Below are positions 2 to 52,926 of a DNA stretch of 64,000 bases, piece by piece. This DNA comes from an uncultured Acidobacteriota bacterium (GTDB lineage: Bacteria; Acidobacteriota; Thermoanaerobaculia; Multivoradales; SZUA-115). Position numbers and translations under genes: made by a program. The stretch lies in contig CAWDVR010000001.1 of the NCBI GenBank assembly GCA_963805975.1, positions 576,001 to 640,000 on the forward strand, written 5' to 3'. A model generated the notes under the pieces. The model ran no database searches. It had not been told where the DNA came from and saw only the letters and a list, made by a program, of their open reading frames with translations. Position 1 is the stretch's first letter; each line of letters starts with the position of its first letter.

Positions 2-1810
2 GACGGCTACCGCGTGCTGGCGCGCTGGGACGGGGAGCGGCCGCAGCTCTTCACCCGCCACGCGCTCGACTGGACCGACCGCTTCCCTGCGGTCGCCGCC
101 GCGCTCACCAAGCTCCCGGCCGAGTCCGCGCTCCTGGACGGCGAGATCGTGGCCCTGACCGCCGACGGCAAGCCCTCCTTCCAGGCCTTGCAGCGCGCGC
201 TCCGCGAGGGCAAGGGCGAGCTCACCTACTTCGTCTTCGACCTCCTGCACTTGGACGGGCGGGACCTGGCGGTCCAGCCGCTCCGCGAGCGCAAGGCGCG
301 GCTCGCCAGCCTGCTCGCCAAGGCCCGCGGCACGACGCTTCGTTACAGCGACCACGTGGAGGGCCGCGGCCTCGACTTCCATCGCTCGGCCTGCAAGCTG
401 GGGCTCGAAGGGATGGTCAGCAAGCGGGCCGACGCTCCCTACCGGCCGGGCCGCAGCCGCGACTGGCTGAAGATCAAGTGCGGGCGGCGGCAGGAGGCGG
501 TGATCGGCGGCTTCAGCGAGCCGTCCGGCACCCGCTCGGGCCTCGGCGCCCTGCTGCTGGGGGTGATGGAGGGCGGCAAGCTGCGCTACGCGGGCAAGGT
601 CGGCACCGGCTTCGACGCCGCCACGCTCCGCGACCTGCGGGCCCGGCTCGGAAAGCTCGAACGCGCCAAGCCGCCGTTCGACCCGGCGCCGCCCCGAGCC
701 GAGGTGCGCGGCGCGCATTGGGTGCAACCGCGGCTCGTGGCCGAGGTGAGCTTCGCCGAATGGACGGAGGACGGACGGATGCGCCAGGCCTCGTTCCAGG
801 GTCTGCGGGAGGACAAGAAACCGGCCGAGGTGCGGCGCGAGGAGCCGGCGGAGGCCGCGCCGCCGCCGCCCGCCAAGCCGCGTCCTGCGGCGAGCGGCAA
901 GAAGGCCAAGGCCGGCCGCGGCCGGGGCGACGGGCCGGCGGGTGTGGCGCTCACCCACCCGGACCGCGTGCTCTATCCGGAGCAGGGCCTCACCAAGCTC
1001 GATCTGGCGCGCTACTACGAGAAGGTGGCGGACTGGGTGCTGCCGCACGTCGCCGGCCGGCCGCTCTCCGTGGTGCGCTGTCCGGACGGGAGCACCGGCC
1101 AGTGCTTCTACCAGAAGCACCCGCACCAGGGAGCCACGAGCCCGCTGCTCTCGGTTCCCATCCGTGAGGACGACGGCGACGAAGCGCCCTATCTCTATAT
1201 CGAGGACCTCGCCGGCCTCGTCACCCTGGTGCAGATCGGTGCCCTGGAGATTCATCCCTGGGGCTCGCGCGTCGCCGCGGTGGAGACGCCGGACCGCTTG
1301 GTGCTGGATCTCGACCCGGATCCGAAGCTGCCGTGGGCCACGCTGGTGGCGGCGGCACGCCTGGTGCGCGACCGCTTGGCCGAGCACGGTCTCGAAAGCT
1401 GGGTCAAGACCACTGGCGGCAAGGGGCTTCACGTTTGCGCGCCGCTCTCTGGAAAGACCTCCTGGGACGACCTTCGCGCCTTCGCGCGCGAGATCGCGGA
1501 GGGACTGGCCCGCGAGGCCCCCGAGCGCTTCCTGAGCAAGGCCTCCAAGGCGGCGCGCGCGGGCAAGATCTTCGTCGACTGGTTGCGCAACGGCCGCGGC
1601 GCCACCGCCGTCGCTCCTTATTCGACGCGGGCTCGCGCCGGTGCCACGGTCGCCACCCCGCTCACCTGGGAGGAGCTGGGGCGCGCGCGGCCCGGCCGCT
1701 TCACGGTCGAGACCGTGCCCGCCCGGCTGGCGCGCCTGGCGCGCGACCCCTGGGAGGGGTTTTCGAAGGCGCGGCAGAAGCTGCCGAAGATTGGATCCGG
1801 CCGAGGGTGA
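2..1810 (+). CDS. ligD: NHEJ DNA ligase D (ligase-OB plus C-terminal primase-polymerase domain), 5'-truncated by the window edge
   Basis: The frame opens with DGYR (tail of KxDGxR). It contains LDGEIV, EGMVSK, WLKIK and GKVGTGF, then the PolDom motifs LTHPDRVLYP, DLDPD, KTTGGKGLHV and IFVDWLRNGRGATAVAPYS. Confidence 0.95.
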   Translation, partial: DGYRVLARWDGERPQLFTRHALDWTDRFPAVAAALTKLPAESALLDGEIVALTADGKPSFQALQRALREGKGELTYFVFDLLHLDGRDLAVQPLRERKARLASLLAKARGTTLRYSDHVEGRGLDFHRSACKLGLEGMVSKRADAPYRPGRSRDWLKIKCGRRQEAVIGGFSEPSGTRSGLGALLLGVMEGGKLRYAGKVGTGFDAATLRDLRARLGKLERAKPPFDPAPPRAEVRGAHWVQPRLVAEVSFAEWTEDGRMRQASFQGLREDKKPAEVRREEPAEAAPPPPAKPRPAASGKKAKAGRGRGDGPAGVALTHPDRVLYPEQGLTKLDLARYYEKVADWVLPHVAGRPLSVVRCPDGSTGQCFYQKHPHQGATSPLLSVPIREDDGDEAPYLYIEDLAGLVTLVQIGALEIHPWGSRVAAVETPDRLVLDLDPDPKLPWATLVAAARLVRDRLAEHGLESWVKTTGGKGLHVCAPLSGKTSWDDLRAFAREIAEGLAREAPERFLSKASKAARAGKIFVDWLRNGRGATAVAPYSTRARAGATVATPLTWEELGRARPGRFTVETVPARLARLARDPWEGFSKARQKLPKIGSGRG

Positions 1811-5634: not shown

Positions 5635-7524
5635 CTAGGGCATTTCACCCAACATTCGCCGCGCGAGCGTGCGATGGTTGCTCTCCCCGGCCGCCGAATC
5701 CTCGGTTGCTGCCAGGTAGCGCTCGAGCGCCTGGCGGGACTCCGCCGGCCGCCCCAGCTCCTTGTAGAGGGTGCCCAGGTGGAAGGCGGCGAGCGTGCAA
5801 GAGCCCGCCTCCACGCCCACCAGGGATTGCACGCTCTCGAGCTCGGCCAGAGCATCGGTCTTTCTGCCGTCGAGATAGAGCAGCACGCCCAGGTTCGAAG
5901 TCATCGCGCAGCGTTGGTACGGCACGGCGTCGCGCCCCCGGCGCAGCTCGGAGATCGCCTCCGCCCGGCGCCCGCGCCGCTCGAGCACCACCGCCAGTTG
6001 CTCGTACGGGTGAGGGTTGTCGGGCTGATCCGCCTGCACCAGGCGGAGGTCCCGCTCCGCCCCCTCGAGATCGCCCCGGACCCGGAGGATGCGCGCCCGG
6101 TCGAGGAGGGCCGAGGTCACGGGCCGGATCGCCAAGGCGTCGTTCAAGGTCGTGAGCGCCTCGTCCGGCCTGCCGGCCTCGAGCAGCGCGTGGCCGAGCT
6201 GGGCGCGGTTGAAGGCCGAGGTCGGGTCGCTCACCAGCCCCCGTTCCCAGAGCGCCAGCTCCGAGCCCCAGGCGCGGTTGTAGCGCGCGGTCTGGGCGGC
6301 GAGCGGCAGGAGCAGGAGACCGGTGCCGAAGAGCAGCGCTCGCTCGGCGCGCCGGCGGCGCGCCGGAGCGAGCTCCCCGGCCGCGAGCCAGGCCGCTCCC
6401 AGCGCCGTCATCCAGAAGCCCAGCAGCGGCAGGTAGAGGTAGCGGTCGTGCACGAGCTGCTCGGGGATGAAGGCGTTGACGTTGCAGGCCGGCAGCAGAG
6501 GCACGAGGAACAGCACTGGACCCAGCCAGAGCCGCGGCCGCCGGCGCACCAGCCAGACGGCGAGCACCGCCGCCCCAGCGACCGCCAGCAGCGGCAGCAC
6601 GAGGTTTTCGAAGCCGGCATTGGCCGTCGTGACGGCGCGCAGGGGGTACGACGGTCCCAGCCAGGCTGGCAGTAGCGCCTGCCGCAGATAGAAGGCGAGG
6701 AGCGACGGCGCCGTGAGCAGCAGCCCGACGGGCCCCATCCGCCACGGGGTCTGGACCTCGACCATGCCCAGCACCCAGGCACGTGCGGCAAGGAAGAGGA
6801 CGGCCAGGACGACGAAGGGGAGGCTGGTGAGGATGCCGCGCCGCCAAGCCGCGCGCCACCAAGCTTTTTGCCGGGGCTCGCCGCGGCCGGCCTCACCGCG
6901 GTCGACCCAATGCCCGGCGACCGCTGTGGCCACGAGCACCGGGAAGACGACGGCGATCTCCTTGGCACCGAGAGCCAGGAGGTAGCAGGCGAGCGCGGCC
7001 AGCCACCGCCCGCGGCTCGGGCTTTGCCTCCCGGGAAGGATCAGGAGCAGCGCCAGCAGCTGGAAGAGCGCGGTCAGCAGGTCCGGGGAGCCCGAGATCC
7101 AGGCCACGGACTCGACGTGGACCGGGTGCACGGCGAACACCGCGCCGATCGCCGCGGCGGGCGGCGTAGCGAACCCGAGGCGGCAGAGCAGGAAGAAGGC
7201 AGCGACCACCACGCCGGCGTGCAGAGCCATGTTCGCCAGGTGCCAGCCCACAGGGCTCTCGACCCCGAAGAGTGCATGGTTCGCCGCCAGCCAGGCCACG
7301 AATACCGGCCGCCAGTAGTTACTCCAGGCCTCCTCGCGCGCTCCCTTGAAGGCCCAGACATCCGAGGTCAGGGCCTCGCCCAGCCGGTCCGGGCCACGGA
7401 GAAGGTGATTCTCCAGAATTTGGACTCTGTCGTCATATACGAATTTTCCGTCCAGCGAGTTGGCGTAGGTCGCTAGAGCCACCACCACCAGAATCAACGC
7501 ACAAAGCCCTTGGTTTTTTCGCAC
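5635..7524 (-). CDS. TMTC-like GT-C membrane glycosyltransferase with C-terminal TPRs
   Basis: YANSLDGKFVYDD, NYWRP, HPVHVESVAWIS, LGAKE and DRYLYLP motifs; many TM helices followed by TPR repeats. Start placed at GTG 7524, which is uncertain. Confidence 0.82.
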   Translation of the reverse strand: MRKNQGLCALILVVVALATYANSLDGKFVYDDRVQILENHLLRGPDRLGEALTSDVWAFKGAREEAWSNYWRPVFVAWLAANHALFGVESPVGWHLANMALHAGVVVAAFFLLCRLGFATPPAAAIGAVFAVHPVHVESVAWISGSPDLLTALFQLLALLLILPGRQSPSRGRWLAALACYLLALGAKEIAVVFPVLVATAVAGHWVDRGEAGRGEPRQKAWWRAAWRRGILTSLPFVVLAVLFLAARAWVLGMVEVQTPWRMGPVGLLLTAPSLLAFYLRQALLPAWLGPSYPLRAVTTANAGFENLVLPLLAVAGAAVLAVWLVRRRPRLWLGPVLFLVPLLPACNVNAFIPEQLVHDRYLYLPLLGFWMTALGAAWLAAGELAPARRRRAERALLFGTGLLLLPLAAQTARYNRAWGSELALWERGLVSDPTSAFNRAQLGHALLEAGRPDEALTTLNDALAIRPVTSALLDRARILRVRGDLEGAERDLRLVQADQPDNPHPYEQLAVVLERRGRRAEAISELRRGRDAVPYQRCAMTSNLGVLLYLDGRKTDALAELESVQSLVGVEAGSCTLAAFHLGTLYKELGRPAESRQALERYLAATEDSAAGESNHRTLARRMLGEMP

Positions 7525-7603
7525 GGGGAGAGTAGAGTACCCGGAAATTGTTGAAGTCGATCCTCGGGACCTGGCGGTCTTCCCGAAAGCTACTGGAGGA
7601 GTC

Positions 7604-8251
7604 ATGAAAAAAGCAGGTTTCGGTCTCTCCGCTCTCGTTGCGGCCCTGGTTGTGCTCCCGGTTCTCGCGGGCACGACGTTGACGTTCACCACCGCGGATC
7701 CGGCGGCGCCGCTGCCCGACAACACCGGCCTTTTCACCGCCTGTCAGAACATCACGGTGGCCGCGATGCCGACCACCATCACCGAGGTGACGGTGCAGAT
7801 CTCTTCGGCGCACTCCTGGGCCGGCGACCTGGTCGCCCGGCTCACGTCCCCGAGCGCCTCGGTTCTGACGCTGGTCAACCGCCCCGGGCGCACCGGCACC
7901 GGCTTCGGCGACAGCAGCAACCTGGCGGCGGCGACGCCGATCACCTACAGCGACACAGCGGCCTCCGGTCTGTCGGCCGAGACCATGGGCAGCCCGGCCG
8001 CTTGCGGTGACACCTCGGTCATCGGCTCCACCCCCGCCTGCCTGGCCGACAACTTCATCCCGGCACCGGCAGTCACTGACATTCCTCCGGGCGTGGGCAC
8101 CAACCTCGCCCAGTTCGACGGCGCGGACCCGAACGGCGTGTGGCAGCTCTGCATCGCCGACGGGGGGCCTGGCGACACCGGCACCCTGAGCTCCTGGAGC
8201 ATCACCGTGACCTCGACGCCGGTGGAGCTGCAGAGCTTCACCATCGAGTAA
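7604..8251 (+). CDS. Secreted Thr/Ser-rich protein with a proprotein-convertase P-domain-like fold and C-terminal PVELQSFTIE motif
   Basis: Sec signal peptide; HSWAGDLVARLTSP, NGVWQLCIAD and GDTGTLSSWSI are typical of P-domains; strong RBS GGAGGA. Confidence 0.8.
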   Translation: MKKAGFGLSALVAALVVLPVLAGTTLTFTTADPAAPLPDNTGLFTACQNITVAAMPTTITEVTVQISSAHSWAGDLVARLTSPSASVLTLVNRPGRTGTGFGDSSNLAAATPITYSDTAASGLSAETMGSPAACGDTSVIGSTPACLADNFIPAPAVTDIPPGVGTNLAQFDGADPNGVWQLCIADGGPGDTGTLSSWSITVTSTPVELQSFTIE

Positions 8252-8275
8252 GCGACCGCTCTCGCGGTTGCGGTT

Positions 8276-8308
8276 GCAAGGCCACCCTTCGGGGTGGCCT
8301 TGCCGTTT
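8276..8308 (+). terminator. 12-bp hairpin with a cUUCGg loop and weak U-tract (terminator or mRNA stabiliser)
   Basis: GCAAGGCCACCC-TTCG-GGGTGGCCTTGC followed by CGTTT. Confidence 0.7.
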
Positions 8309-8330
8309 CAGGGAGGTCGCGCGCCGGGCC

Positions 8331-9965
8331 ATGACCGTTCGACCCTTCACCCGGCTGGCTGCCGTGCCGGCCCTGGCGTTTCTCGCCTTGGCCTCGGCCG
8401 CCTGCCAGGGCGACCCGCCGGCGAGCTCGCCCCCACCACCCGCCTCGACCTCGAACCTCCAGCCGCTGCCGGCACCTTCCACCGGAGGCTTCGAGCCCGA
8501 GGTTCGCGAGCAGCTCGACCGCCTGCGTTCGCAGGTCGCTCTGCTCGAGACGGGGCGCGCCTCTGCGGCCGATCGGGCCGCCGGATACGGCGCGCTCGCC
8601 ATGCTCTACCATGCCTACGGGCTCGATGCCGCGGCCCGCGCCTGTTACCAGAACGCGCGCACCCTGGCTCCCACCGAGCCGCGCTGGCCTTACTACCTGG
8701 GACGGCTCGATCTGGCCGCCGGCCGCAATGCCGAGGCGGCAGAGGCATTCGAGGCCTCCTTGAAGCTCGAGCCGGGCGAAAAGCTGAGTCTCCTGGGTCT
8801 CGGTCAGGCGCGCCAGGCCGAGGGCGGGCTCGAGCAAGCGAGGAGCGCGTTCGAGTCGGCACGGGCCAGGGAGGCCGAGAGCGTTCTCGCACACTTCCAC
8901 CTGGGGCAGATCGCGGCCGAGCGCGGCGAGCTGCCGACGGCGATCCGGCACCTCGAAGCGGCGCTTGCCGCGCAGCCGGACGCCGAGCCCGTGCAGCGGG
9001 TGCTCGCGGGCGTCTACGGGCGGGCCGGGGACCGCCTGCGCGCCGCGGAGGTGAGCCGCAGGGGAGGCAAGGCGGCGCTCGCCTATGACGACCCGCGGAT
9101 GCTGGCCGTCGAGACGCTCGCCAAGAGTGGCCGCGCCCTGGTCGACCGCGGCGTGGCGGCGTTCGCCGAGGGTCGCTTCGCCGATGCCGAGGCGGCTTTC
9201 CGCCAGGCGGTGGCCAGCCTGCCCGACGACGCGGATGCGCACTTGAACCTCGGCTCGGCGCTCTTCGAGCAAAGGAAGCTCCCCGAGGCCGAGCAGGAGT
9301 ACCGCCGTACCCTGGAGCTCGATCCGGCCGCCACCCGCGCGCGCTTCAACCTCGGTACCCTGCTCGCCGCGAGCGGCAGGCGCGACAAGGCGATCCGGGA
9401 GTACGAAGCGGCGCTGCGCAGTGATCCCGGCCACGTCTCCGCGCACTTCAACCTGGCCAACTCGCTGCTCACGCTCGGCCGTTTCGCCGAAGCCGAGGGC
9501 CACTTCGCGGCGGTCGTGGAGCGGGAGCCGGCCCGGTCCTCCGCCCGCCTGGGCCTTGCGGTGAGCCGGTCCCGGCTCGGGCGCGACGCCGAGGCACGGC
9601 AGGCACTGGAGGAGGGCCTCGGTCTGCGGCCGGCTGACCGCGTGCTCACCGAGGGCTTGGTGCGGCTACTGGCCGCGAGCCCCGACCCGGCGGTTCGCGA
9701 CGGCGCGCGCGCGCTGGCGCTCGCCCGCCAGCTCATGGCCGCCCAGAGCCAGCTCGAGAGCGTCGAGGCCCTGGCCATGGCCCTGGCGGAGACCGGCGAC
9801 TTCGCGCAGGCGGCGCAGCTCCAGGCCAACGCTCTCGCCGCCGTCCGCAGCTCGAGCCGGCCGGAGCTGGTCGAGCCCGTGGAGCGCAACCTCGCCCTCT
9901 ACCGCGCCGGCAAGCCCTGCCGGGAACCCTGGCGGGGCGAGGACTTCGGGGGGACGTGGGAGTAG
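8331..9965 (+). CDS. TPR-repeat lipoprotein
   Basis: Signal peptide ending LASAAC (lipobox-like); many TPR units (WPYYLG, AHFHLG, AHLNLG, ARFNLG, AHFNLA); C-terminal RDGARALALA and LALYRAGKPCR. Confidence 0.82.
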   Translation: MTVRPFTRLAAVPALAFLALASAACQGDPPASSPPPPASTSNLQPLPAPSTGGFEPEVREQLDRLRSQVALLETGRASAADRAAGYGALAMLYHAYGLDAAARACYQNARTLAPTEPRWPYYLGRLDLAAGRNAEAAEAFEASLKLEPGEKLSLLGLGQARQAEGGLEQARSAFESARAREAESVLAHFHLGQIAAERGELPTAIRHLEAALAAQPDAEPVQRVLAGVYGRAGDRLRAAEVSRRGGKAALAYDDPRMLAVETLAKSGRALVDRGVAAFAEGRFADAEAAFRQAVASLPDDADAHLNLGSALFEQRKLPEAEQEYRRTLELDPAATRARFNLGTLLAASGRRDKAIREYEAALRSDPGHVSAHFNLANSLLTLGRFAEAEGHFAAVVEREPARSSARLGLAVSRSRLGRDAEARQALEEGLGLRPADRVLTEGLVRLLAASPDPAVRDGARALALARQLMAAQSQLESVEALAMALAETGDFAQAAQLQANALAAVRSSSRPELVEPVERNLALYRAGKPCREPWRGEDFGGTWE

Positions 9966-9978
9966 CCCGGCTGCAGGG

Positions 9979-11736
9979 TCATCGCACCCGGTGAGCGAAG
10001 GCCCCCGCCGCAATCCCCCGCCACCGCTCCTTCCGCCCATCCGGCCACCGGATCTCGATATTCAGCGTCGAGCCGTCGTTGCCGGCGCCCAACCCCACCA
10101 GCAGCCGCGGATCTCTCGCCGAGAGGTAGCTGCCGTCCGTGTGGACGCGGTGGTGGAGCGCCGGGCCCTTCCTACGGCTCACGGTGACGCGGGCCTGGAG
10201 CGCATCGCCGCCCGCGGCCGTGGCCAGGCTCACGCCGAGCCAGGGCAGGCGGTTGCCGAGCTGGTTCTCGAGAAGGCGCACCGGGCCGCCGTTGTTGGTC
10301 AGGATCACATCGGTGTCGCCGTCGTTGTCGAGATCGCCGAAGGCCGCGCCGCGGCCTACCTCGGAGAGCGCGAAGACCTCACCGCCACGAGCCGTGGTGT
10401 CCTCGAAGGTGCCGTTGCCCCGGCTGCGGAAGAGCTGCTTGACCTGGTGCAGCGGGAAAGGGTCGCCCCTGTCGGCCAGCGCCGGGATGTCGCGCACCGC
10501 GCCGTTGGTCACCAGCAGATCGAGCCAGCCGTCGTTGTCGTAGTCGAGCCATCCGGTGCCAAAGCCGGTGTAGGGAAAGCTCGGCGCTCCCAGAAGGGCA
10601 CCGCGGCGCGCATCGGCGAACGTGCCGTCGCCCTGGTTGACGAACAGGGCATGGGTCTCGCCCGTCAGGTGGGTGACGAAGAGATCCTCGTCGCCGTCGG
10701 CGTCGAAGTCGCCGGCGGCGACGCCCATCGAAGCCTCGACCGCGCCGGAGCCGCTCACCGCGCAGCCGGCGAGCGCCGCCTCGTCCTCGAACCGGCCGCC
10801 GCCCTGGTTGATCCAGAGCTGGTTGGGCGCGGCGTCGTTGGCGACGAAGAGGTCGAGGCGGCCGTCCTGGTCGAAGTCGGTGGCCACGGCGCCCAGGGCC
10901 GGACCGTCCGCGGCGGCGATGCCGGAGGCCAGGGTCGTGTCCTCGAAAGTGCCGTCGCCGCGGTTGCGGAGCAGCCGGTCGGGCACCGGGTGGAAGCTCA
11001 TGGGGCCGCAGTAGTCCACGGCTCCCGACGCGCCGCGGCAGAGGCGGTGGTTGTCGAAGGTGAAGTCCACGTAGTTGGCGATGAAGAGATCGAGCCGGCC
11101 GTCCTGGTCGTAGTCGAAGAAGGTGGCGGAAGCCGAGAAGCGGCTGTCGCCGGCCCCGGAGCGCGCCGTGGCGTCCTCGAAGGTGCCGTCACCGCGGTTT
11201 CTCCAGAGCTGGTTGGCGCCGAAGCGGGTGACGTAGAGGTCCACGTGGCCGTCGGCGTCGTAGTCCCCCGTCGCCGCTCCCATGCCGTAGCCGCTGGAAT
11301 CGAGCCGGCTCGACGCGGTGACGTCCACGAACCGCGGCTCGAGGCGGCCTATGGCCGAGAGCGTCAGGTCGTTGCGATACAGGCGATCCCGCAGGGGTGT
11401 CATGCCGGGCGCCGGCGGCGCCAGCGCATCCGCGAGGGACTTGCCCGGCCCGAGCAGCGCGCCTTGCATCAGGAAGAGGTCGAGATCGCCGTCGCCGTCG
11501 AAGTCGAAGAGCGCCGCGCCGGCCCCCATCACCTCCACAATGTAGCGCTCCCCCGAACGGCCGTTGAAATGGACGAAGTCGAGCCCGAGCTCGCGGGCGC
11601 GCTCGGTGAAGACCTCGCCGGAAGCGGTCGGGCTGACCTGCGCGGTGGTTGGATCAGGTTGCTCCGGAGGGCCGCAGGCGACAAGACTGGCCGCCAGGGA
11701 GCATGGGAGCGCGAAGCAGGTCAGCGGAGAGCTCAC
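9979..11736 (-). CDS. CRTAC1 family protein (FG-GAP/Ca-binding beta-propeller plus ASPIC/UnbV domain), probable lipoprotein
   Basis: Repeated D[FY]DxDGxxD motifs, GRGAAFGDLDNDGD, GSYLSARDPRLLVGLG and IRWPDG. The GTG start overlaps the upstream stop (GTGA); LVAC lipobox. Confidence 0.88.
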   Translation of the reverse strand: MSSPLTCFALPCSLAASLVACGPPEQPDPTTAQVSPTASGEVFTERARELGLDFVHFNGRSGERYIVEVMGAGAALFDFDGDGDLDLFLMQGALLGPGKSLADALAPPAPGMTPLRDRLYRNDLTLSAIGRLEPRFVDVTASSRLDSSGYGMGAATGDYDADGHVDLYVTRFGANQLWRNRGDGTFEDATARSGAGDSRFSASATFFDYDQDGRLDLFIANYVDFTFDNHRLCRGASGAVDYCGPMSFHPVPDRLLRNRGDGTFEDTTLASGIAAADGPALGAVATDFDQDGRLDLFVANDAAPNQLWINQGGGRFEDEAALAGCAVSGSGAVEASMGVAAGDFDADGDEDLFVTHLTGETHALFVNQGDGTFADARRGALLGAPSFPYTGFGTGWLDYDNDGWLDLLVTNGAVRDIPALADRGDPFPLHQVKQLFRSRGNGTFEDTTARGGEVFALSEVGRGAAFGDLDNDGDTDVILTNNGGPVRLLENQLGNRLPWLGVSLATAAGGDALQARVTVSRRKGPALHHRVHTDGSYLSARDPRLLVGLGAGNDGSTLNIEIRWPDGRKERWRGIAAGAFAHRVR

Positions 11737-13433
11737 GGCGCGAGGTCCGCGAGCATGCGCTGGAGGTGGGAGTGAGAAGGGTGGCGGGAGACGGCCCTGC
11801 GCAGCACCTCCCGGGCTTCCTCGATCCGCCCCGCGCCGCGCAGCAGCACCGCCGCGTTGCGGGCCGCGTCGGCTGGATAGGGCGGCGCCTCGGCGGTGGC
11901 GAGGAAGACGGCGAGGGCCTCGTCGCCCCGGCCGACCTCGGCCAGGCAGGAGCCGTAGTTCACCCGCGTGAGCGCCTTCTCCTGGACATAGCCTGGACGG
12001 CCGGCGAAGGCGGCGAGGGCTTGCTCGTAGTAGGGCAGCGCCCGCGCCGCGTCCCGGTGCCGGGTGTGGAACAGCACCGCCAGGCCGTGGTAGCCGAAGG
12101 GCGCGAGAGGGTCGGCAGCGATCGAGCCCTCCAGCAGGGCCTGCGCCTCGTCGATCCGCCCTTCCTCCAGGGCGTGCGCGGCCAGCCAGTCGAAGGCGGC
12201 CGGGTTGCCGGGATCGACCGCCGCCACCCGCTGCCAGAGCGCCACGTCGCTCGCCCAGAAGCGGTCGTGGTAGAGGTTGCTCGCGGCCCACACGGCGAGA
12301 AGACCGGCCGCGAGCCCCCAGCGCAGGCGCCGCGCGCGCACCTTCTCCACCAGCAGCCAGGCGGCGACGAGGCAGAGCCCGAGCACCGCCAGGTAGAGAT
12401 AGCGCTGGTGCACCAGGTAGGTGGGGCGAAAGCCGCGCACGTTCCCGGCCGGCGCCAGGCAGAACAGGCACCAGAGCGCGCCGAAGCCCACCACGCGCGC
12501 TCGGCGGGCGGCGAGCGCCACCGTGGCCAGCACCACGACCCAGACGAGCACCGATCCCCAGGCCGCGGCCGAGCCCCAGCCTTCCACGTAGCGCACCGGG
12601 TAGCTGGGCGAGAGATGCAAAGGCCAGAAGAGGAACCGCAGGTACTCGAGCCCGAGCCGCGGCAGGGTGGGCAGTACCTCTGCCCAGCTGGGCCCGGGAT
12701 AGACGCCGAGCAGGCTGGTGAGCACCAGCTTGCGGGCCGCAAAGTAGACGACGGTTACCCCGAGGTAGGGCAGGAGCCCGCGGACGCGCCGGGCGAGCGG
12801 GCGCTGGGGGGCCAGCCAGTGCTCGGTGAGCGGCACCAGCGCGAGGAGCGAGAGCGCGGCCTCCTTGAAGCCGAGCGACAGCAGGAAGAGGAGCGCGCCG
12901 GCCGCGAGGCACCGTCTCCCGCCACCCTCGAGCCAGCGGATGTGCGCCACCAGGGCGAGGAGCATCAGCGCCGAGGCGGGCGGATCGTTGAACGCCGTCG
13001 CCACCCAGGCCACGGACTCGCCGTGCGCCGGGTGCACGGCGAAGAGCAGGGCGCCGAGGAGAGCCACCTCGTCACCCAGGCGCAGCCGGCGCAGGAAGGC
13101 GAGCGCCGCGAGGCACGCGGCGAGGTGCAGGGCCACGGCCACGGCGTGCCAGACGACGGCGCTCGGACCGAAGAGCTGGTAGAGCAGCAGGTAGAAAGTG
13201 AAGAACAGGGGCCGGTAGTAGTTCGAGCGCTGGTCCTCCGCGCGGGTCAGCGACAGCACGTCCCGCTGCCAGAAAGACGGCAGGCTCGACCAGCTCCTGA
13301 GGTTCGGGTTGTTGACCACCTGCTCGTGGTCGTCCCAGACGAAGCCGTGCGCGAGGGTCGGCGCGTAGACGGCGAGCACCAGGACGGCGATCGCCGCCAC
13401 CTCGAGCCAGAGCCGGCGCCGGGACTCAGACAT
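11733..13433 (-). CDS. Second TMTC-like GT-C glycosyltransferase with TPRs
   Basis: FVWDD, NYYRP, HPAHGESVAW, GFKE and QRYLYL motifs; TPR tail. Confidence 0.82.
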   Translation of the reverse strand: MSESRRRLWLEVAAIAVLVLAVYAPTLAHGFVWDDHEQVVNNPNLRSWSSLPSFWQRDVLSLTRAEDQRSNYYRPLFFTFYLLLYQLFGPSAVVWHAVAVALHLAACLAALAFLRRLRLGDEVALLGALLFAVHPAHGESVAWVATAFNDPPASALMLLALVAHIRWLEGGGRRCLAAGALLFLLSLGFKEAALSLLALVPLTEHWLAPQRPLARRVRGLLPYLGVTVVYFAARKLVLTSLLGVYPGPSWAEVLPTLPRLGLEYLRFLFWPLHLSPSYPVRYVEGWGSAAAWGSVLVWVVVLATVALAARRARVVGFGALWCLFCLAPAGNVRGFRPTYLVHQRYLYLAVLGLCLVAAWLLVEKVRARRLRWGLAAGLLAVWAASNLYHDRFWASDVALWQRVAAVDPGNPAAFDWLAAHALEEGRIDEAQALLEGSIAADPLAPFGYHGLAVLFHTRHRDAARALPYYEQALAAFAGRPGYVQEKALTRVNYGSCLAEVGRGDEALAVFLATAEAPPYPADAARNAAVLLRGAGRIEEAREVLRRAVSRHPSHSHLQRMLADLAP

Positions 13434-48482: not shown

Positions 48483-50608
48483 GGCGGTCTCTCCATCATT
48501 TGGCGTGCCTCTGCCATCACCCGCGGATCACGGCAGCGGGCGGCGAGGGTCGAGTACACGGCCTCGGCTTCACCGCGCTCGCCGGCCGCGAGGTGCAGGG
48601 CCAGCAGCGCGAGGTGGGCCTTCCAGTAGTCGGGCGCGAGGTCGAGCGCGCGCCGGAGCTCGCTTCGTGCTTCCTCCTGCCGCGCGGTCTTGAGCAGCAG
48701 GGTGGCGAGGTTCAGGTGCGCGGAAGGGTCGAGCGGCGTATCGGCCGCCAGGCGCCGCAGATGCACCTCGGCCTCGGCAACACGGCCGGCCTCGGCGAGG
48801 AGAACGGCGAGGCGCTGGCGCGCCGCGTTGTGCTTCGGGTCGGCGGCGAGCGCCGCGGCCAGCTCACCCTCCTCGGCGGCGCGGTCGCCCAGCTCCCCGA
48901 GCATGGCGCCGAGCAGGAAGTGGGTCGGTGCCGAGGCCTGGGCCGCCGCCACTTTCTTTGCCAGGGCGAGCGCCCGCTGGTGATCGCCGTTCGAGAACAG
49001 GACCCGCGCCACCTCCATGTACACGTAGTCGTTCTGCGAGCTGATCGGCCCCGCGGCGGCCACCGCGGCGGCCTCCTCCGCCTGGCCGAGGCCGAGCTGC
49101 GCGGTGGCGAGGAGCGCGCGGTAGAAGGCGTTGCCCGGCTCCTCCTCGACCAGCCGCAGCGCCTGCTCGCGGGCCCCCAGGTAGTCCTGCCGCTGGAGGC
49201 TCTGCTTGCACAGGCTCCAGAGGCTCACGCTGGCGATGTGATCCTGCGGCGGATCGCCGTCGTCGCGGAGCTTCTCCTCGATCTGGATCGGCCCTTCGCC
49301 GCCGGCCGAGATGTAGCCCAGCGCGGCCAGCCGCTCGCGGGTCGCGGCATCGCTGTCCGCCAGCGCCTCGGAGGCCGTGGTGCTGGCGTTCTCGGTGACG
49401 AAGGCCTGCAGGCCGTTCTGCAGCCGCTCGGCCTCGGCGCCGGGTGCCAGGTTGGCCAGCTCCTGCGGGTCCTGGCGGACGTCGAAGAGCTCGCGGCGCG
49501 GGCCGTGGATGTACTTGTGCGGCCCCACGAAGAGCGCGCGGAGCTCCCCCCAGCCGTAGGACAGCCGGGGCGACAGGGTCTCGGCGTAGTAGGGCCGCTG
49601 GTCGGCCGGTGCCTGGGCAGGGTTGGCATCCGCGCGCCCGAGCTCGGCGACCAGCGAGCGCCCCTGCAGGTCCGCGGGCACCGGCAGTCCCAGGATCTCG
49701 AGCAGCGTGGGCATGAGGTCGACGGTGCCGACTCGGGACCGCACCCGCCGCCCACCCTTCTCGCCCGGGATGCGGAGGATGAAGGGCACGTGCAGCGTCG
49801 CGTTGTAGAGCAGCATGGAGTGGGTGTCCTCCTCGTGCTCGCCCCGCCCCTCGCCGTGGTCGGCGAGCATGGCGATCACCGTGCGGTCGTAGACGCCCTG
49901 CCGCTTCAGCTCGTCGAGCACCACGCCCAGGGCCTGGTCGGCATAGGCGATCTCCCCCTGGTAGAGGTCGTGCGGGTAGAGGTCGGAGAAGGGTGGCGGC
50001 GGAACGTGCGGCTGGTGCGGGTCCCAGTAGTGGACCCAGGCGAAGAAGCGCCGGCGGGCGTGGTCGCGCAGCCAGGGCAGGATGGCGTCGTTCACCCGCG
50101 CCGCGGGCCGTTCGTCGAAGAAGATGCCGGGACCCTGGCGCCGCCGGCCGCGTTCGTCCTCGGCCGCCACCGTGATGTGATCGTCGTAGAAGTCGAAGCC
50201 CTGGTCGAGGCCCCAGTCGCGGGTCAACGGGAAGGCGCCGATGGCGGCGCCCGTGGCGTAGCCCTCGGCTTTCAGGATCTCGGCCAGGGTGGTGCGCTCC
50301 GCGGGCAGGCGGAAGCGACCGTTGTCCCGCACGCCGTGCGCCAGCGGGTAGAGGCCGGTGAACATGGTGGAGTGCGACGGCGTGGTGATCGGCACCGGCG
50401 TCATGCAGTTCTCGAACAGGGCACCCTCCGCCGCCAGCCGGTCGAGGTTCGGGGTGCGTGCCGAGGTCTTGCCGTAGCAGCCGAGGAAGTCGGCGCGCGT
50501 GGTGTCGAAGGTCACCAACAGGAGATTGAGCTTCGGCTCCCGCCCGCAGGCCGCGAGGGCGAGGAGGGTGAGGATGCCAGGGCGCCGGCCTGCGCGGTGG
50601 ACTGTCAT
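48479..50608 (-). CDS. Sulfatase-like hydrolase/transferase with C-terminal TPRs, lipoprotein
   Basis: LAAC lipobox; LVTFDTTRAD, PITTPSHSTMFTG, HYWDPH, YQGEIAYAD, ADHGE and LAALGY; TPR tail. Confidence 0.88.
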   Translation of the reverse strand: MTVHRAGRRPGILTLLALAACGREPKLNLLLVTFDTTRADFLGCYGKTSARTPNLDRLAAEGALFENCMTPVPITTPSHSTMFTGLYPLAHGVRDNGRFRLPAERTTLAEILKAEGYATGAAIGAFPLTRDWGLDQGFDFYDDHITVAAEDERGRRRQGPGIFFDERPAARVNDAILPWLRDHARRRFFAWVHYWDPHQPHVPPPPFSDLYPHDLYQGEIAYADQALGVVLDELKRQGVYDRTVIAMLADHGEGRGEHEEDTHSMLLYNATLHVPFILRIPGEKGGRRVRSRVGTVDLMPTLLEILGLPVPADLQGRSLVAELGRADANPAQAPADQRPYYAETLSPRLSYGWGELRALFVGPHKYIHGPRRELFDVRQDPQELANLAPGAEAERLQNGLQAFVTENASTTASEALADSDAATRERLAALGYISAGGEGPIQIEEKLRDDGDPPQDHIASVSLWSLCKQSLQRQDYLGAREQALRLVEEEPGNAFYRALLATAQLGLGQAEEAAAVAAAGPISSQNDYVYMEVARVLFSNGDHQRALALAKKVAAAQASAPTHFLLGAMLGELGDRAAEEGELAAALAADPKHNAARQRLAVLLAEAGRVAEAEVHLRRLAADTPLDPSAHLNLATLLLKTARQEEARSELRRALDLAPDYWKAHLALLALHLAAGERGEAEAVYSTLAARCRDPRVMAEARQMMERPP

Positions 50609-52067
50609 TCACTGGCGCTATCAGGCGGATCGCCTGCTCCTCGAGGATCTGCTGCCGGAGCTTGGCCCCGGCCTCGCGCCGCCGCCGGTCGAGAAGGGAG
50701 GCGCGCACGTAGGCCTTGGCCTCGGCCAGGGACAGCTTGCGCTCGGCTCGCTTCCCCACGAGCTCGAGGATCAGGAGGCTGCGCCCTTCCTGCACCACCG
50801 GGCTGAACCCGCCGGGCTCGATCGCGAGCACGGCGGCGTTGGCGTTCAGGCCCAGAGCCCACACCTCGTCGTCGGAGAGCCAGCCCAGGTCTTCCACCTG
50901 GGCGTGCGGGGCCAGGGCCGCGGCCGCCTTCCCGAGGTCGCCGCCGGCCTCTCGCAGCTCCCGGCCCTGCTCGCGCACCCGGTCGTAGAGCGAAGCGGGG
51001 AGGTCATTGCGGATGGGGACGCGGAGGCGGCGGAGGTGGCGGCTCCCGGGCTCGCTCCAGCCTTCCGGCCGGGCTTCGAAGGCAGCCCGGAGCTCGTCCT
51101 CCGAGGGCTCGCCGATCGAGGGCCGCGTGCTCTCGTTCGCCACCGCCTGGGCCTCGAGCTCCAGGTTCTTCCAGCGCAGCAGGAGCTGGTGGTCCGCCGA
51201 CTTCGTGAGGCCCAGCCGCTCGGCTTCGACGCTCGGTCCGCCCTTGCGCTCGACCTCCTCCCGGAGGGCCTGGAAGCGCTCGTTGCGAAGCTCGGTCGCG
51301 AGATCCTCCCGCGCTCCCTCGAAGCGGGGGGCCACCGGCTCGAGCACCTGCACGCAGCGCAAGATCGCGGCGCCCCGCGGCAGGTCGATCACCGGGCTGA
51401 TCTCACCTGGCTGCAGGGTGGCGACGGCTTTCGCGAGCGGATCGGCCAGCCGGTCGAGCGTGACGAAGCCCATGGCGCCACCCCGGAGCCGGGTCGAGGA
51501 CTCGGACTCGGCCTGTGCGACGGCCGCGAAGTCCGCGCCGGCGGCCAGCCGCGCCCGCACACCTTCGAGCGTCTTGCGTACCTCGCCCTTGGCCACGTCG
51601 TCCGCCCCCGGCGGGTACGCCTTGAAGATGTCCTCGAGGCGCCAGCGGCCGGGCTCGGCGAGGGCCGCCCGGCGTACTTCGAAGAGCCGATGCAGATCGG
51701 CCTCCGTGGGTTCGGCCTGGGTCAGCAGATGGAGGTTCAGGGCGCGTTGGGCGAGCTGCGCTTCGAGCCGGCGGCGCTGGCTCCCGGTTTCCTCACGCAC
51801 CGCCGCCGGCAGAGCCGCGAAGCGCCCGGCGAGGGTCTCGAGGATCACGATCTCCTCGACCTTGCGCCGCAGGCCCAGCCGCGAAGGAGCGCCGCTGTCG
51901 AGCTGCACGAAGCGCGACCAGGATTCGACCTCGGCCGCCGACACTTCGCCCCCGCGGTAGGTGGCCACCACGGTGTCGTCCGTCGGCGGCGCGGCAGAGG
52001 CGGGCCGCGGGACGGCCGGCGAGGCGAGGGTCAGGATCAGGGGGATCAGAGCCGCGGCAAGGGTCAT
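50605..52067 (-). CDS. Second parvulin-type PPIase/foldase; its stop appears lost through an indel near 50610-50630
   Basis: Signal peptide from ATG 52067; FAAVAQAESES..GGAMG, GEISPVI and GGFSPVV. Plausible protein ends at EQAIRL, where the frame runs on out of frame over the sulfatase. Confidence 0.75.
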
Positions 52068-52082
52068 CGAGGCGGGAAGCTT

Positions 52083-52111
52083 AAACGAACAAGGCACCCC
52101 GGAGGGTGCCT
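52083..52111 (-). terminator. 8-bp hairpin with partial U-tract downstream of the second PVEL gene
   Basis: The minus strand reads AGGCACCC-TCCG-GGGTGCCT-TGTTCGTTT. Confidence 0.65.
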
Positions 52112-52155: not shown

Positions 52156-52926
52156 CTAATCGGCTTCGAAGCTCATCAGCTCGACGGGCAGGTTGTCGCC
52201 GGTCACGCGGAAGATGGAGTTCTGGTTGGTGATCACCGTGCCGGCGCCGGGGACCGTGACCACCATGGTGGGCACGAAGGCGGCCGAGTTGAACGGCACG
52301 CGGATGCCGTGGAAGCCCATGCCGGGGTCGACGCCGCCCATGGTGAGGGCCACGCCGTCGCAGGTGCTGTTCAGGGCCACGCTGCCGGCGCAGGGGTCAT
52401 AGTCCGTATTGCGCAGGCCACCCACGAAGGCGCCGGAGTGCGCTACCACCGGCATGGTGAGGGGGGCCATGGCGGTGAACATGGTCACGTTGCCGGTGTC
52501 GCCGAACGCCAGGTAGGGCAGGCCGGTCAGCACCGTGCGGCGCAGCACCATGAAGGAGCCGGGGTTTTGATCCCAGATCGTCATCACCATCTGGTCACCG
52601 CCGTTGGGGGCGGTGCCGTAGTTGCCGGCGATGCGGAAGCTCGCCGAGGCGATCGAGTGCGGATCCTGGACACCGGCGTCGAACAAGTTGCCCACCGTTC
52701 CGCCATCGGTGCCGCGGCGGGCGAAGGGAACGTTGTTGTCGTAGGTCAGGGTCCCGGGCGCACCTGTCGGCGACAGTGGCGGACCGGCGGGCACGAGTTG
52801 CGCCTGGACAACGGGTACGGGGCTCGGGCCAGTGTGCTTGCGCGGCGCGGCCGTGGCTGCTGCTGCGGCGGCGAGGAGCAGCAGAGTGCTGGTTGCGACC
52901 AAACCCGAACGAGCGTCGACCTTCAT
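52156..52926 (-). CDS. Secreted beta-rich protein with C-terminal PVELMSFEAD motif
   Basis: Signal peptide; Gly/Thr/Asn-rich mature region with one Cys pair; RBS GGAGG/AAGGA. Confidence 0.78.
   Translation of the reverse strand: MKVDARSGLVATSTLLLLAAAAAATAAPRKHTGPSPVPVVQAQLVPAGPPLSPTGAPGTLTYDNNVPFARRGTDGGTVGNLFDAGVQDPHSIASASFRIAGNYGTAPNGGDQMVMTIWDQNPGSFMVLRRTVLTGLPYLAFGDTGNVTMFTAMAPLTMPVVAHSGAFVGGLRNTDYDPCAGSVALNSTCDGVALTMGGVDPGMGFHGIRVPFNSAAFVPTMVVTVPGAGTVITNQNSIFRVTGDNLPVELMSFEAD

Follow-up and report, generated by a model that had tools for sequence, protein, structure and literature searches.

A C-terminal strand tag, its candidate catcher and a gingipain-family peptidase as a likely sorting system in Acidobacteriota and other phyla

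Two secreted proteins encoded in the window, a stretch of 64,000 nucleotides (G000:C1:576001-640000), end in nearly the same ten residues, and this raises the question of what such a tail does and which protein reads it. Cargo 1 (P0001, 215 aa, positions 7604-8251, + strand) ends in TSTPVELQSFTIE (TPVELQSFTIE-stop), and cargo 2 (P0002, 256 aa, positions 52156-52926, - strand) ends in DNLPVELMSFEAD (LPVELMSFEAD-stop); tail 1, PVELQSFTIE, lies at 8219-8248 (+), and tail 2, PVELMSFEAD, lies at 52159-52188 (-). The initial annotation had described a shared PVELxSFxx[DE]-stop end with the Pro 10 residues from the terminus, strong ribosome binding sites, no transmembrane anchor and no other similarity. 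All of this holds for both proteins: a GGAGG element precedes the ATG of each gene, a C-terminal hydrophobic helix is absent from each product, and the two proteins, compared without their tails, give a best blastp E of 4.9. Signal peptides were called by eye and by a simple hydrophobicity rule, without a dedicated predictor. Cargo 1 is a proprotein-convertase P-domain protein (PF01483, E 3.7e-13), and cargo 2 belongs to an unnamed family, with no match above cut-off in NCBIfam or Pfam. Among the 20 PV[ETSDQ]LxxF matches in the 60,210 six-frame ORFs of genome G000, these two are the sole C-terminal ones; by chance, 0.0004 C-terminal PVELxxFxx[DE] matches would be expected in 3,171 real-looking ORFs. 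The labels of homologs put this genome close to the Thermoanaerobaculia within the Acidobacteriota.

In the AlphaFold2 model of cargo 1 (pLDDT 88), the domain is complete at the strand of residues 193-204, and residues 205-215, which hold the tail, are unpaired. In this single model made, the tail is not an internal strand of the cargo's own fold; had it been one, the proposal of the initial annotation would by its own terms have been refuted. A scan of positions 7400-8400 for promoters and terminators found none, and a GC-rich hairpin, recognized by eye, lies 3' of each cargo gene. Among RNA runs, a small share was seen in one soil metatranscriptome, and a 629-base contig of a relative covers 7733-8289, contigs from RNA libraries being no proof of transcription. 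Between cargo 1 and the partner genes described below, Ku and LigD-like end-joining genes were seen by eye (window 14-1810 and G000 C1:573919-576000), likewise in G001; they are probably unrelated to the tail system.

The tail is retained in 120 of the 120 listed cargo 2 homologs and in 43 of 54 cargo 1 homologs, counts with a small bias because the homolog queries contained the tail. The 11 cargo 1 homologs without it comprise six ending in a hydrophobic helix plus an Arg cluster, which match no named model, two weak homologs with PEP-CTERM ends, two that look truncated and one variant. At the DNA level, the tail-plus-stop pattern was found 54 times, in 14 of 31 related genomes, with 0 for the reversed control, and matched 7 of 401 genomes of the phylum. 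At least 127 stretches were matched in a scan of species representatives; 80 were titled, mostly Acidobacteriota, Sumerlaeota and Gammaproteobacteria (Dokdonella and relatives, Marinicella-like), and six matches in other taxa were judged to be chance. The DNA patterns end in TRR, which admits TGG (Trp), and such matches were discounted among the matches listed. Matches to loosened patterns are at the level of chance (the control gave 36 in 121 genomes), and one cytoplasmic oxidoreductase (G173) was matched in this way; a putative pattern match from the Rhodanobacteraceae scan falls in G472.

In total, 105 tail-bearing cargo proteins from Acidobacteriota, Rhodanobacteraceae and Sumerlaeota fall into 60 unrelated clusters (single linkage), so the motif is not confined to the two window proteins, a limitation that the initial annotation had said would refute its proposal. 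A genome may carry two tails (G000), up to 12 (Acidobacteriota) or up to 17 (Rhodanobacteraceae). The proposed check for signal-peptide enrichment was run, and the tail proved to be enriched on secreted proteins: by a lenient rule, 74 of 87 complete cargo of at least 120 aa have a signal-peptide-like start, compared to 343 of 937 background ORFs, with several of the misses showing obvious signals by eye and 7 shorter frames excluded. The mature cargo are small proteins with much Thr, Gly and Asn and little Lys, Arg or Glu. The main form of the tail, in alignment rows selected by pattern, ends in Asp or Glu, and the residues ahead of the tail Pro are not conserved in the manner of a protease site. 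No curated sorting-domain HMM was found for the two window proteins, and no family is common to 55 tails; NCBIfam 20.0 and Pfam hold no model for the tail or for the catcher introduced below.

Other termini were seen alongside the PVEL tail. Two small tail-bearing cargo (L126 and L083) have twin-arginine-like leaders, one with Ser/Thr/Pro repeats, which suggests Tat-exported, glycosylated substrates. In G000, 33 ORFs have ends of the FxDGFE(S/T)GDTSAW type, for example C1:1450873-1453383, a separate orphan tail, and about six proteins carry IP[TA]L-helix-Arg tails (C1:555143-556768, 462461-466612, 1426723-1432224 and 1178279-1179631; C3:164289-166001; C6:280669-284862). Together with the PVEL tail, at least three C-terminal tail types thus coexist in this genome. 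The FxDGFE tail follows neither the catcher nor the C25 peptidase discussed below, and the idea that it uses the same reader was rejected: 28-57 pattern matches occur in eight catcher-negative genomes and 0 in the catcher-positive G013 and G295.

The candidate reader was reached through the motif. We take PVELxSF to open a larger Ig-like domain that continues LxWxTxSExxNxGFxxxR, and the genome was searched for this remainder. The partner genes so found lie 5-8 kb upstream of window base 1 (G000:C1:568005-571119, + strand; L031:12005-15119, where L031 coordinates + 556000 give C1). Catcher 1 (P0177, C1:568005-568370, +) and catcher 2 (P0178, C1:570739-571119, +, lipobox-like) are small exported proteins consisting of exactly that domain remainder, with the first strand absent. 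In the lettering that we assume for the strands, the catcher model (pLDDT 93) shows an FN3 sandwich that starts with strand B, strand A being absent. Superposed on FN3 domains, it reaches at best a Z of 9.7 and an rmsd of 2.4 over 90 aligned residues (2ic2_B), and in several isolated FN3 chains, 2h45 and 3mpc among them, the structural alignments set in at residue 19. Foldseek also returned FN3 domains as top matches, none of them at E ≤ 0.001; with Pfam fn3, one of 19 catcher members matches, below cut-off (E 0.061); the catcher sequence gave nothing meaningful against the PDB; and in the ESM Atlas the nearest clusters are unnamed hypothetical proteins, the nearest named one being fn3 at 0.83.

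When 1.84 billion proteins were searched with a catcher profile, there were 26,844 matches at E ≤ 0.001. From 154 proteins examined, 103 close catcher homologs were obtained, namely 96 without strand A, 5 fragments and 2 with strand A in cis. These 2 are natural fusions of tail and catcher: P0290, with the order cargo-PVELQAFDIA-catcher, and P0294. In distant intact domains, PVELSSF, PVTLSAF, PVSLSSF and similar segments precede the conserved Trp by 19-21 residues; a clear match is missing from many other repeats. With hhalign, the tails align to columns 8-18 of an intact-domain profile (E 4.6e-5, probability 68%) and the catchers to columns 24-106 (99.9%), the profile including sequences retrieved with the catcher model. 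Judged by these alignments, tail and catcher tile one domain of known type with no overlap, tail 1 being homologous to strand A of an FN3-like domain, and the kinship with the internal LPVELxxF segment of larger Ig-like domains, which the initial annotation had mentioned, is borne out. In the predicted single-chain structures, the tail hangs free and the catcher appears as an FN3 sandwich without strand A. Complex prediction for the catcher with 30-residue tails scored 0.62, and one unrelated-peptide control scored 0.54.

Between the two catcher genes lies a gene for a C25 peptidase of 791 aa (P0179, C1:568367-570742, +; PF01364, E 1.8e-79). Its sole sequence match in the PDB is PorU (6za2, E 9.9e-16), with the His-Cys dyad aligned and intact, and the GHG and [TS]C motifs are present in nearly all C25 copies. 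The scores against the PorU and PorU2 equivalogs, 194.7 and 132.3 bits, are both below the cut-offs of 420 and 450. The C25 gene adjoins the catcher in 15 of 18 Acidobacteriota loci and falls inside the analysed stretch in 9 of 20 further catcher loci; in many Rhodanobacteraceae it lies within 4-16 kb of the catcher, often across ABC exporter and glycosyltransferase genes. Fusions in which the strand-less catcher domain is joined to a C25 of this subfamily, at its N- or its C-terminus, are also found. In a tree made by a quick method, in which long branches meet, the Rhodanobacteraceae form one clade among the Acidobacteriota, and the identity is 49% across phyla compared to 51% within groups, which hints at C25 gene transfer between phyla. 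Second copies of the subfamily were seen directly downstream of a cargo gene in L302 (G013 C118), and two lie close together in L351 (G431 C263).

Tail-negative relatives commonly encode giant cargo-FN3-C25 fusions of 1,200-3,800 aa, and G000 itself has a secreted one of 1,600 aa with strand A intact (C2:600780-605621, L032); such fusions may process themselves. In the giant fusions, including a PVTLSSFEA one in tail-negative G002, an intact FN3 domain stands between cargo and C25. It is likely that the present arrangement arose when such a giant fusion was split after strand A, whereby a single enzyme came to serve many cargos.

The distribution of the three components was then compared. The Acidobacteriota set comprised 60 genomes, 18 tail-positive and 42 tail-negative, the latter hand-chosen from 403 (G053 among them is unpublished) and mostly nearest kin, which are not independent of one another. 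The catcher was found at E ≤ 3.6e-21 in 18 of the 18 tail-positive genomes, and no match better than 4.8e-6 occurred in the 42 tail-negative ones. Similarly, the C25 subfamily was present at E ≤ 4e-118 in 17 of 18 and gave nothing better than 2.7e-25 in the 42; G040 has only a divergent C25, beside its catcher. Discordant pairs exist inside genera (G025/G015 and G268/G250) and in six further families. Out of sample, the catcher was found at E ≤ 4.1e-22 in 24 of 26 further tail genomes and a close C25 in 21 of 26, five Sumerlaeota having a divergent stand-alone C25, and a search of the six chance-match genomes for the catcher found none.

Among 121 Rhodanobacteraceae, 29 have the catcher, the same 29 have the C25, and 28 of those 29 have tails, which end in Asp or Glu in 25 genomes and in Asn, Ile or Arg in three more; in G473, with catcher and C25 present, no tail was found. 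In the 92 catcher-negative genomes, the main tail pattern gave only 2 Trp-codon artefacts, and the loosened pattern matched 10 genomes, which is the control level; the 4 plausible ones inspected lie in short frames that lack signal peptides. In G431, a real tail and C25 are present and no catcher was found, and G425 has only a distant catcher. In G250, two tail-like ends lie in short intergenic frames, and neither catcher nor C25 was found. Its congener G268 (L345-L347) keeps a catcher, a C25 and apparently broken cargo near transposases, and G250 (L338-L339) keeps only the intergenic ends; the system may be in decay in this genus. All three components occur in a cultured bacterium, Dokdonella soli (G421), which has nine tail matches in addition to catcher and C25. 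In general, tail, catcher and C25 subfamily co-occur across three phyla, with catcher and C25 adjacent or fused.

Further genes accompany the core set. Catcher 1, C25, catcher 2 and a PMT_2 plus TPR gene that follows them (C1:571116-572963, +) all overlap in one run, from which a PMT_2-like gene (about C1:566410-567777, -) diverges. A PMT_2-like membrane glycosyltransferase is shared by 24 of 44 catcher neighbourhoods, in addition to the G000 copy; a search for the PMT_2-like gene found it in none of 5 negatives and in 3 of 5 other positives, 2 of these 5 giving no match. Two Sumerlaeota C25 genes sit in polysaccharide loci, and TPR and sulfatase genes are frequent neighbours. The surroundings of cargo 1 (5635-7599 (-), 8331-9965 (+), 9979 to about 11700 (-) and 11733-13433 (-)) encode two TPR-ended membrane proteins resembling, by eye, protein O-mannosyltransferases, a TPR lipoprotein and an FG-GAP/ASPIC-UnbV protein; genes similar to these recur near catchers in several relatives.

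The foldase link suggested by the initial annotation received some support. Directly downstream of cargo 2 lies a gene for a two-domain PPIC-type PPIase (50600-52097, -, 3' end uncertain), whose product, aligned over 534 columns with the PPIase portion of one natural PPIase-catcher fusion, is 27.5% identical to it and is the best PPIase match in G000 to 2 of 3 such fusions. It is a probable accessory. The catcher domain is fused to two-domain PPIases in P0293, P0311 and P0325, and to DUF1573 proteins directly beside cargo genes; through such fusions, the same tag would recruit folding or assembly helpers. The PPIase frame (window 48864-52097, -) has no stop at its junction with the sulfatase gene, which starts at 50608, and continues for about 580 codons in a shadow frame; a one-base assembly error or a stop loss is possible. 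Two-gene units, possibly dedicated one-to-one systems, were seen at L293-L298, L300, L301, L309, L198 and L204; in them, a small tail-bearing cargo precedes a protein of 340-570 aa that has a divergent catcher domain and, in several cases, DUF1573.

Based on the components presented above, a mechanism may be proposed. Cargo, catcher and enzyme would be exported by Sec, as their signal sequences suggest. The free tail would then take the place of strand A in the catcher; such periplasmic docking, following Sec export, is quite probable because of the exact split, the natural fusions and the co-occurrence. The catcher would present the cargo to the C25, a step suggested by their adjacency and fusion. 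The C25 would cut the linker and transfer the cargo to an amine on a glycan or glycolipid. Cleavage or transpeptidation by the C25 is fairly likely by analogy to PorU, and a glycan acceptor can be put forward only tentatively, the glycan genes giving circumstantial support. Passages in PMC4560394, PMC11969387 and PMC4804311 describe PorU as cleaving the signal and joining the cargo to LPS, and its cleavage is called sequence-independent in a passage of PMC4804311. Finally, the cargo would pass to the surface; as to an outer-membrane route, the secretin matches in G000 are below the GspD cut-off. On the whole, we consider it rather probable that the tail binds the catcher by completing a split FN3 domain and that the C25 cuts the cargo near the tail and transfers it to a cell-surface glycan or glycolipid. 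That these parts make up a self-contained sortase route of Gram-negative bacteria that does not depend on type IX secretion, with a split-FN3 strand tag, a catcher with a gingipain-family transpeptidase, foldases and assembly proteins, cargo held covalently on a surface glycan, and a cassette portable among at least three phyla, is a proposal to which we give slightly less than an even chance.

The initial annotation had offered the orphan terminal strand as a means of strand complementation or sorting, a part that is supported, and as a self-polymerizing filament or S-layer strand, a part that is not, because the cargo fall into so many unrelated clusters. A related but quite improbable reading is that the tailed proteins are subunits of a fibre or surface layer, with DUF1573-catcher proteins as platforms and the C25 trimming the subunits, as gingipains trim type V pilus subunits. 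The small, Thr/Gly/Asn-rich cargo would suit it, as would the 340-570 aa catcher-domain proteins (several with DUF1573) that adjoin small cargo genes in many Rhodanobacteraceae and in G009 and G020; however, 60 unrelated clusters for 105 cargo are hard to reconcile with subunits, and the cargo 1 model, a complete domain by its strand list, offers no obvious acceptor for the next tail. Non-covalent tethering, in which the tail stays in the catcher, lipidated catchers hold the cargo on the membrane, and the C25 has another substrate or only matures components, is unlikely. Lipoprotein-like (lipobox-like) leaders are present in 28 of 79 short catchers, about one third, as well as in catcher 2, and low-complexity spacers precede the catcher domain, all of which a tether could use, but as many as 17 cargo genes in a genome would share one to few catcher genes, many catchers lack a lipid anchor or are part of a C25 fusion, and the C25 tracks the catcher exactly in 121 genomes.

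The tail might also direct export across the outer membrane, a channel or chaperone reading it and the catcher being a periplasmic escort only. The catcher-PPIase fusions (P0293, P0311 and P0325) and secretin-type matches in 5 of 5 genomes checked point this way, but no channel gene appears among the conserved neighbours at 44 catcher loci, most clusters having been read by eye, and SprA and type IX tails were not found in the tail genomes tested, which makes this reading very improbable. Least probable of all, and largely refuted, is the view that the tail is left over, without function, from a truncated Ig/FN3 domain or is simply one more strand of the cargo's fold: the tail-like ends in non-coding G250 frames and the broken look of G268 cargo near transposases would agree with a remnant, whereas the tail is of fixed length, persists in all 120 homologs of cargo 2 and in 43 of 54 of cargo 1, is replaced by membrane-anchor tails in 8, is unpaired in the model and co-occurs tightly with catcher and C25.

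In the full-text literature searched, mostly outside subscription journals, no published description of a tail-catcher-C25 system was found. The feature is real, and it likely represents a three-part sorting system, hitherto undescribed, in which recognition takes an unusual form. The orphan tail thereby gains a concrete reader and enzyme, which makes the proposal directly testable in a cultured bacterium. If sorting by tail, catcher and C25 is true, PorU-type anchoring would extend beyond type IX secretion, a widespread and unexplained C25 peptidase group would gain a role, and a sorting signal would have been born by a domain split after its first strand.

Compared to type IX attachment (CTD, PorU and A-LPS), the system shares a C-terminal signal on many unrelated Sec-exported proteins, a C25 enzyme with a His-Cys dyad whose sole PDB sequence relative is PorU, and nearby glycan genes; in Bacteroidota-type cargo, an intact PVEL-FN3 domain precedes the type IX tails. 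On the other hand, the tail here has 10 residues, whereas the folded CTD is given as 40-80 residues in a passage of PMC11969387; recognition would be by a split domain; and the C25 scores 194.7 bits, compared to the PorU cut-off of 420. The CTD (PF18962) was found 0 times in G000, G025, G421, G426 and G437 and 50 times in the Bacteroidota control G447; no SprA was found in G000 and four other tail genomes, although it was found in G447, and no PorV was found in G000 (96% complete). The tripartite signals (LPXTG, PEP-CTERM, GlyGly-CTERM and MYXO-CTERM) are likewise terminal and multi-copy, with an invariant motif on unrelated cargo with signal peptides, and they too are swappable with other tails, patchy in spread and tightly co-occurring with a protease. 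Most of the sorting-signal criteria given in the part of bioRxiv 10.1101/2023.06.07.544157 that concerns them are seen in the PVEL tail. The tail differs in having no transmembrane helix, the protein ending 10 residues from the Pro, no basic cluster and an acidic end, and the candidate enzyme is a soluble gingipain-family peptidase rather than an intramembrane protease or a sortase A fold. The system would thus work like PorU attachment yet stand apart from both the type IX and the tripartite classes, being without helix, basic cluster, type IX domain and translocon.

In donor-strand complementation, as in chaperone-usher and type V pili, a terminal strand completes the Ig-like fold of another protein. 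The likeness lies in an acceptor with an incomplete Ig-like fold, which by alignment and model is the catcher; chaperone-usher systems are mentioned in a passage of PMC4804311. The difference is that donor and acceptor are here distinct protein classes, the acceptor being a small adaptor or an enzyme-fused module, and strand and groove do not share a subunit type, judged by the one cargo modelled, a complete P-domain, and by the close catchers, of which just 2 of 103 have a tail-like strand, in cis. Chain growth is not implied, given the unrelated folds of the cargo. In engineered split tags such as SpyTag/SpyCatcher and split FN3, one strand serves as the tag and the rest of a beta-sandwich as the catcher. 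Unlike these, the system here is natural, probably non-covalent and coupled to a peptidase, and it uses the N-terminal strand A as a C-terminal tag. If the proposal is true, a 10-residue tag, a 90-residue catcher and a cognate ligase would form a natural tag-catcher-ligase kit and a possible tool for protein engineering.
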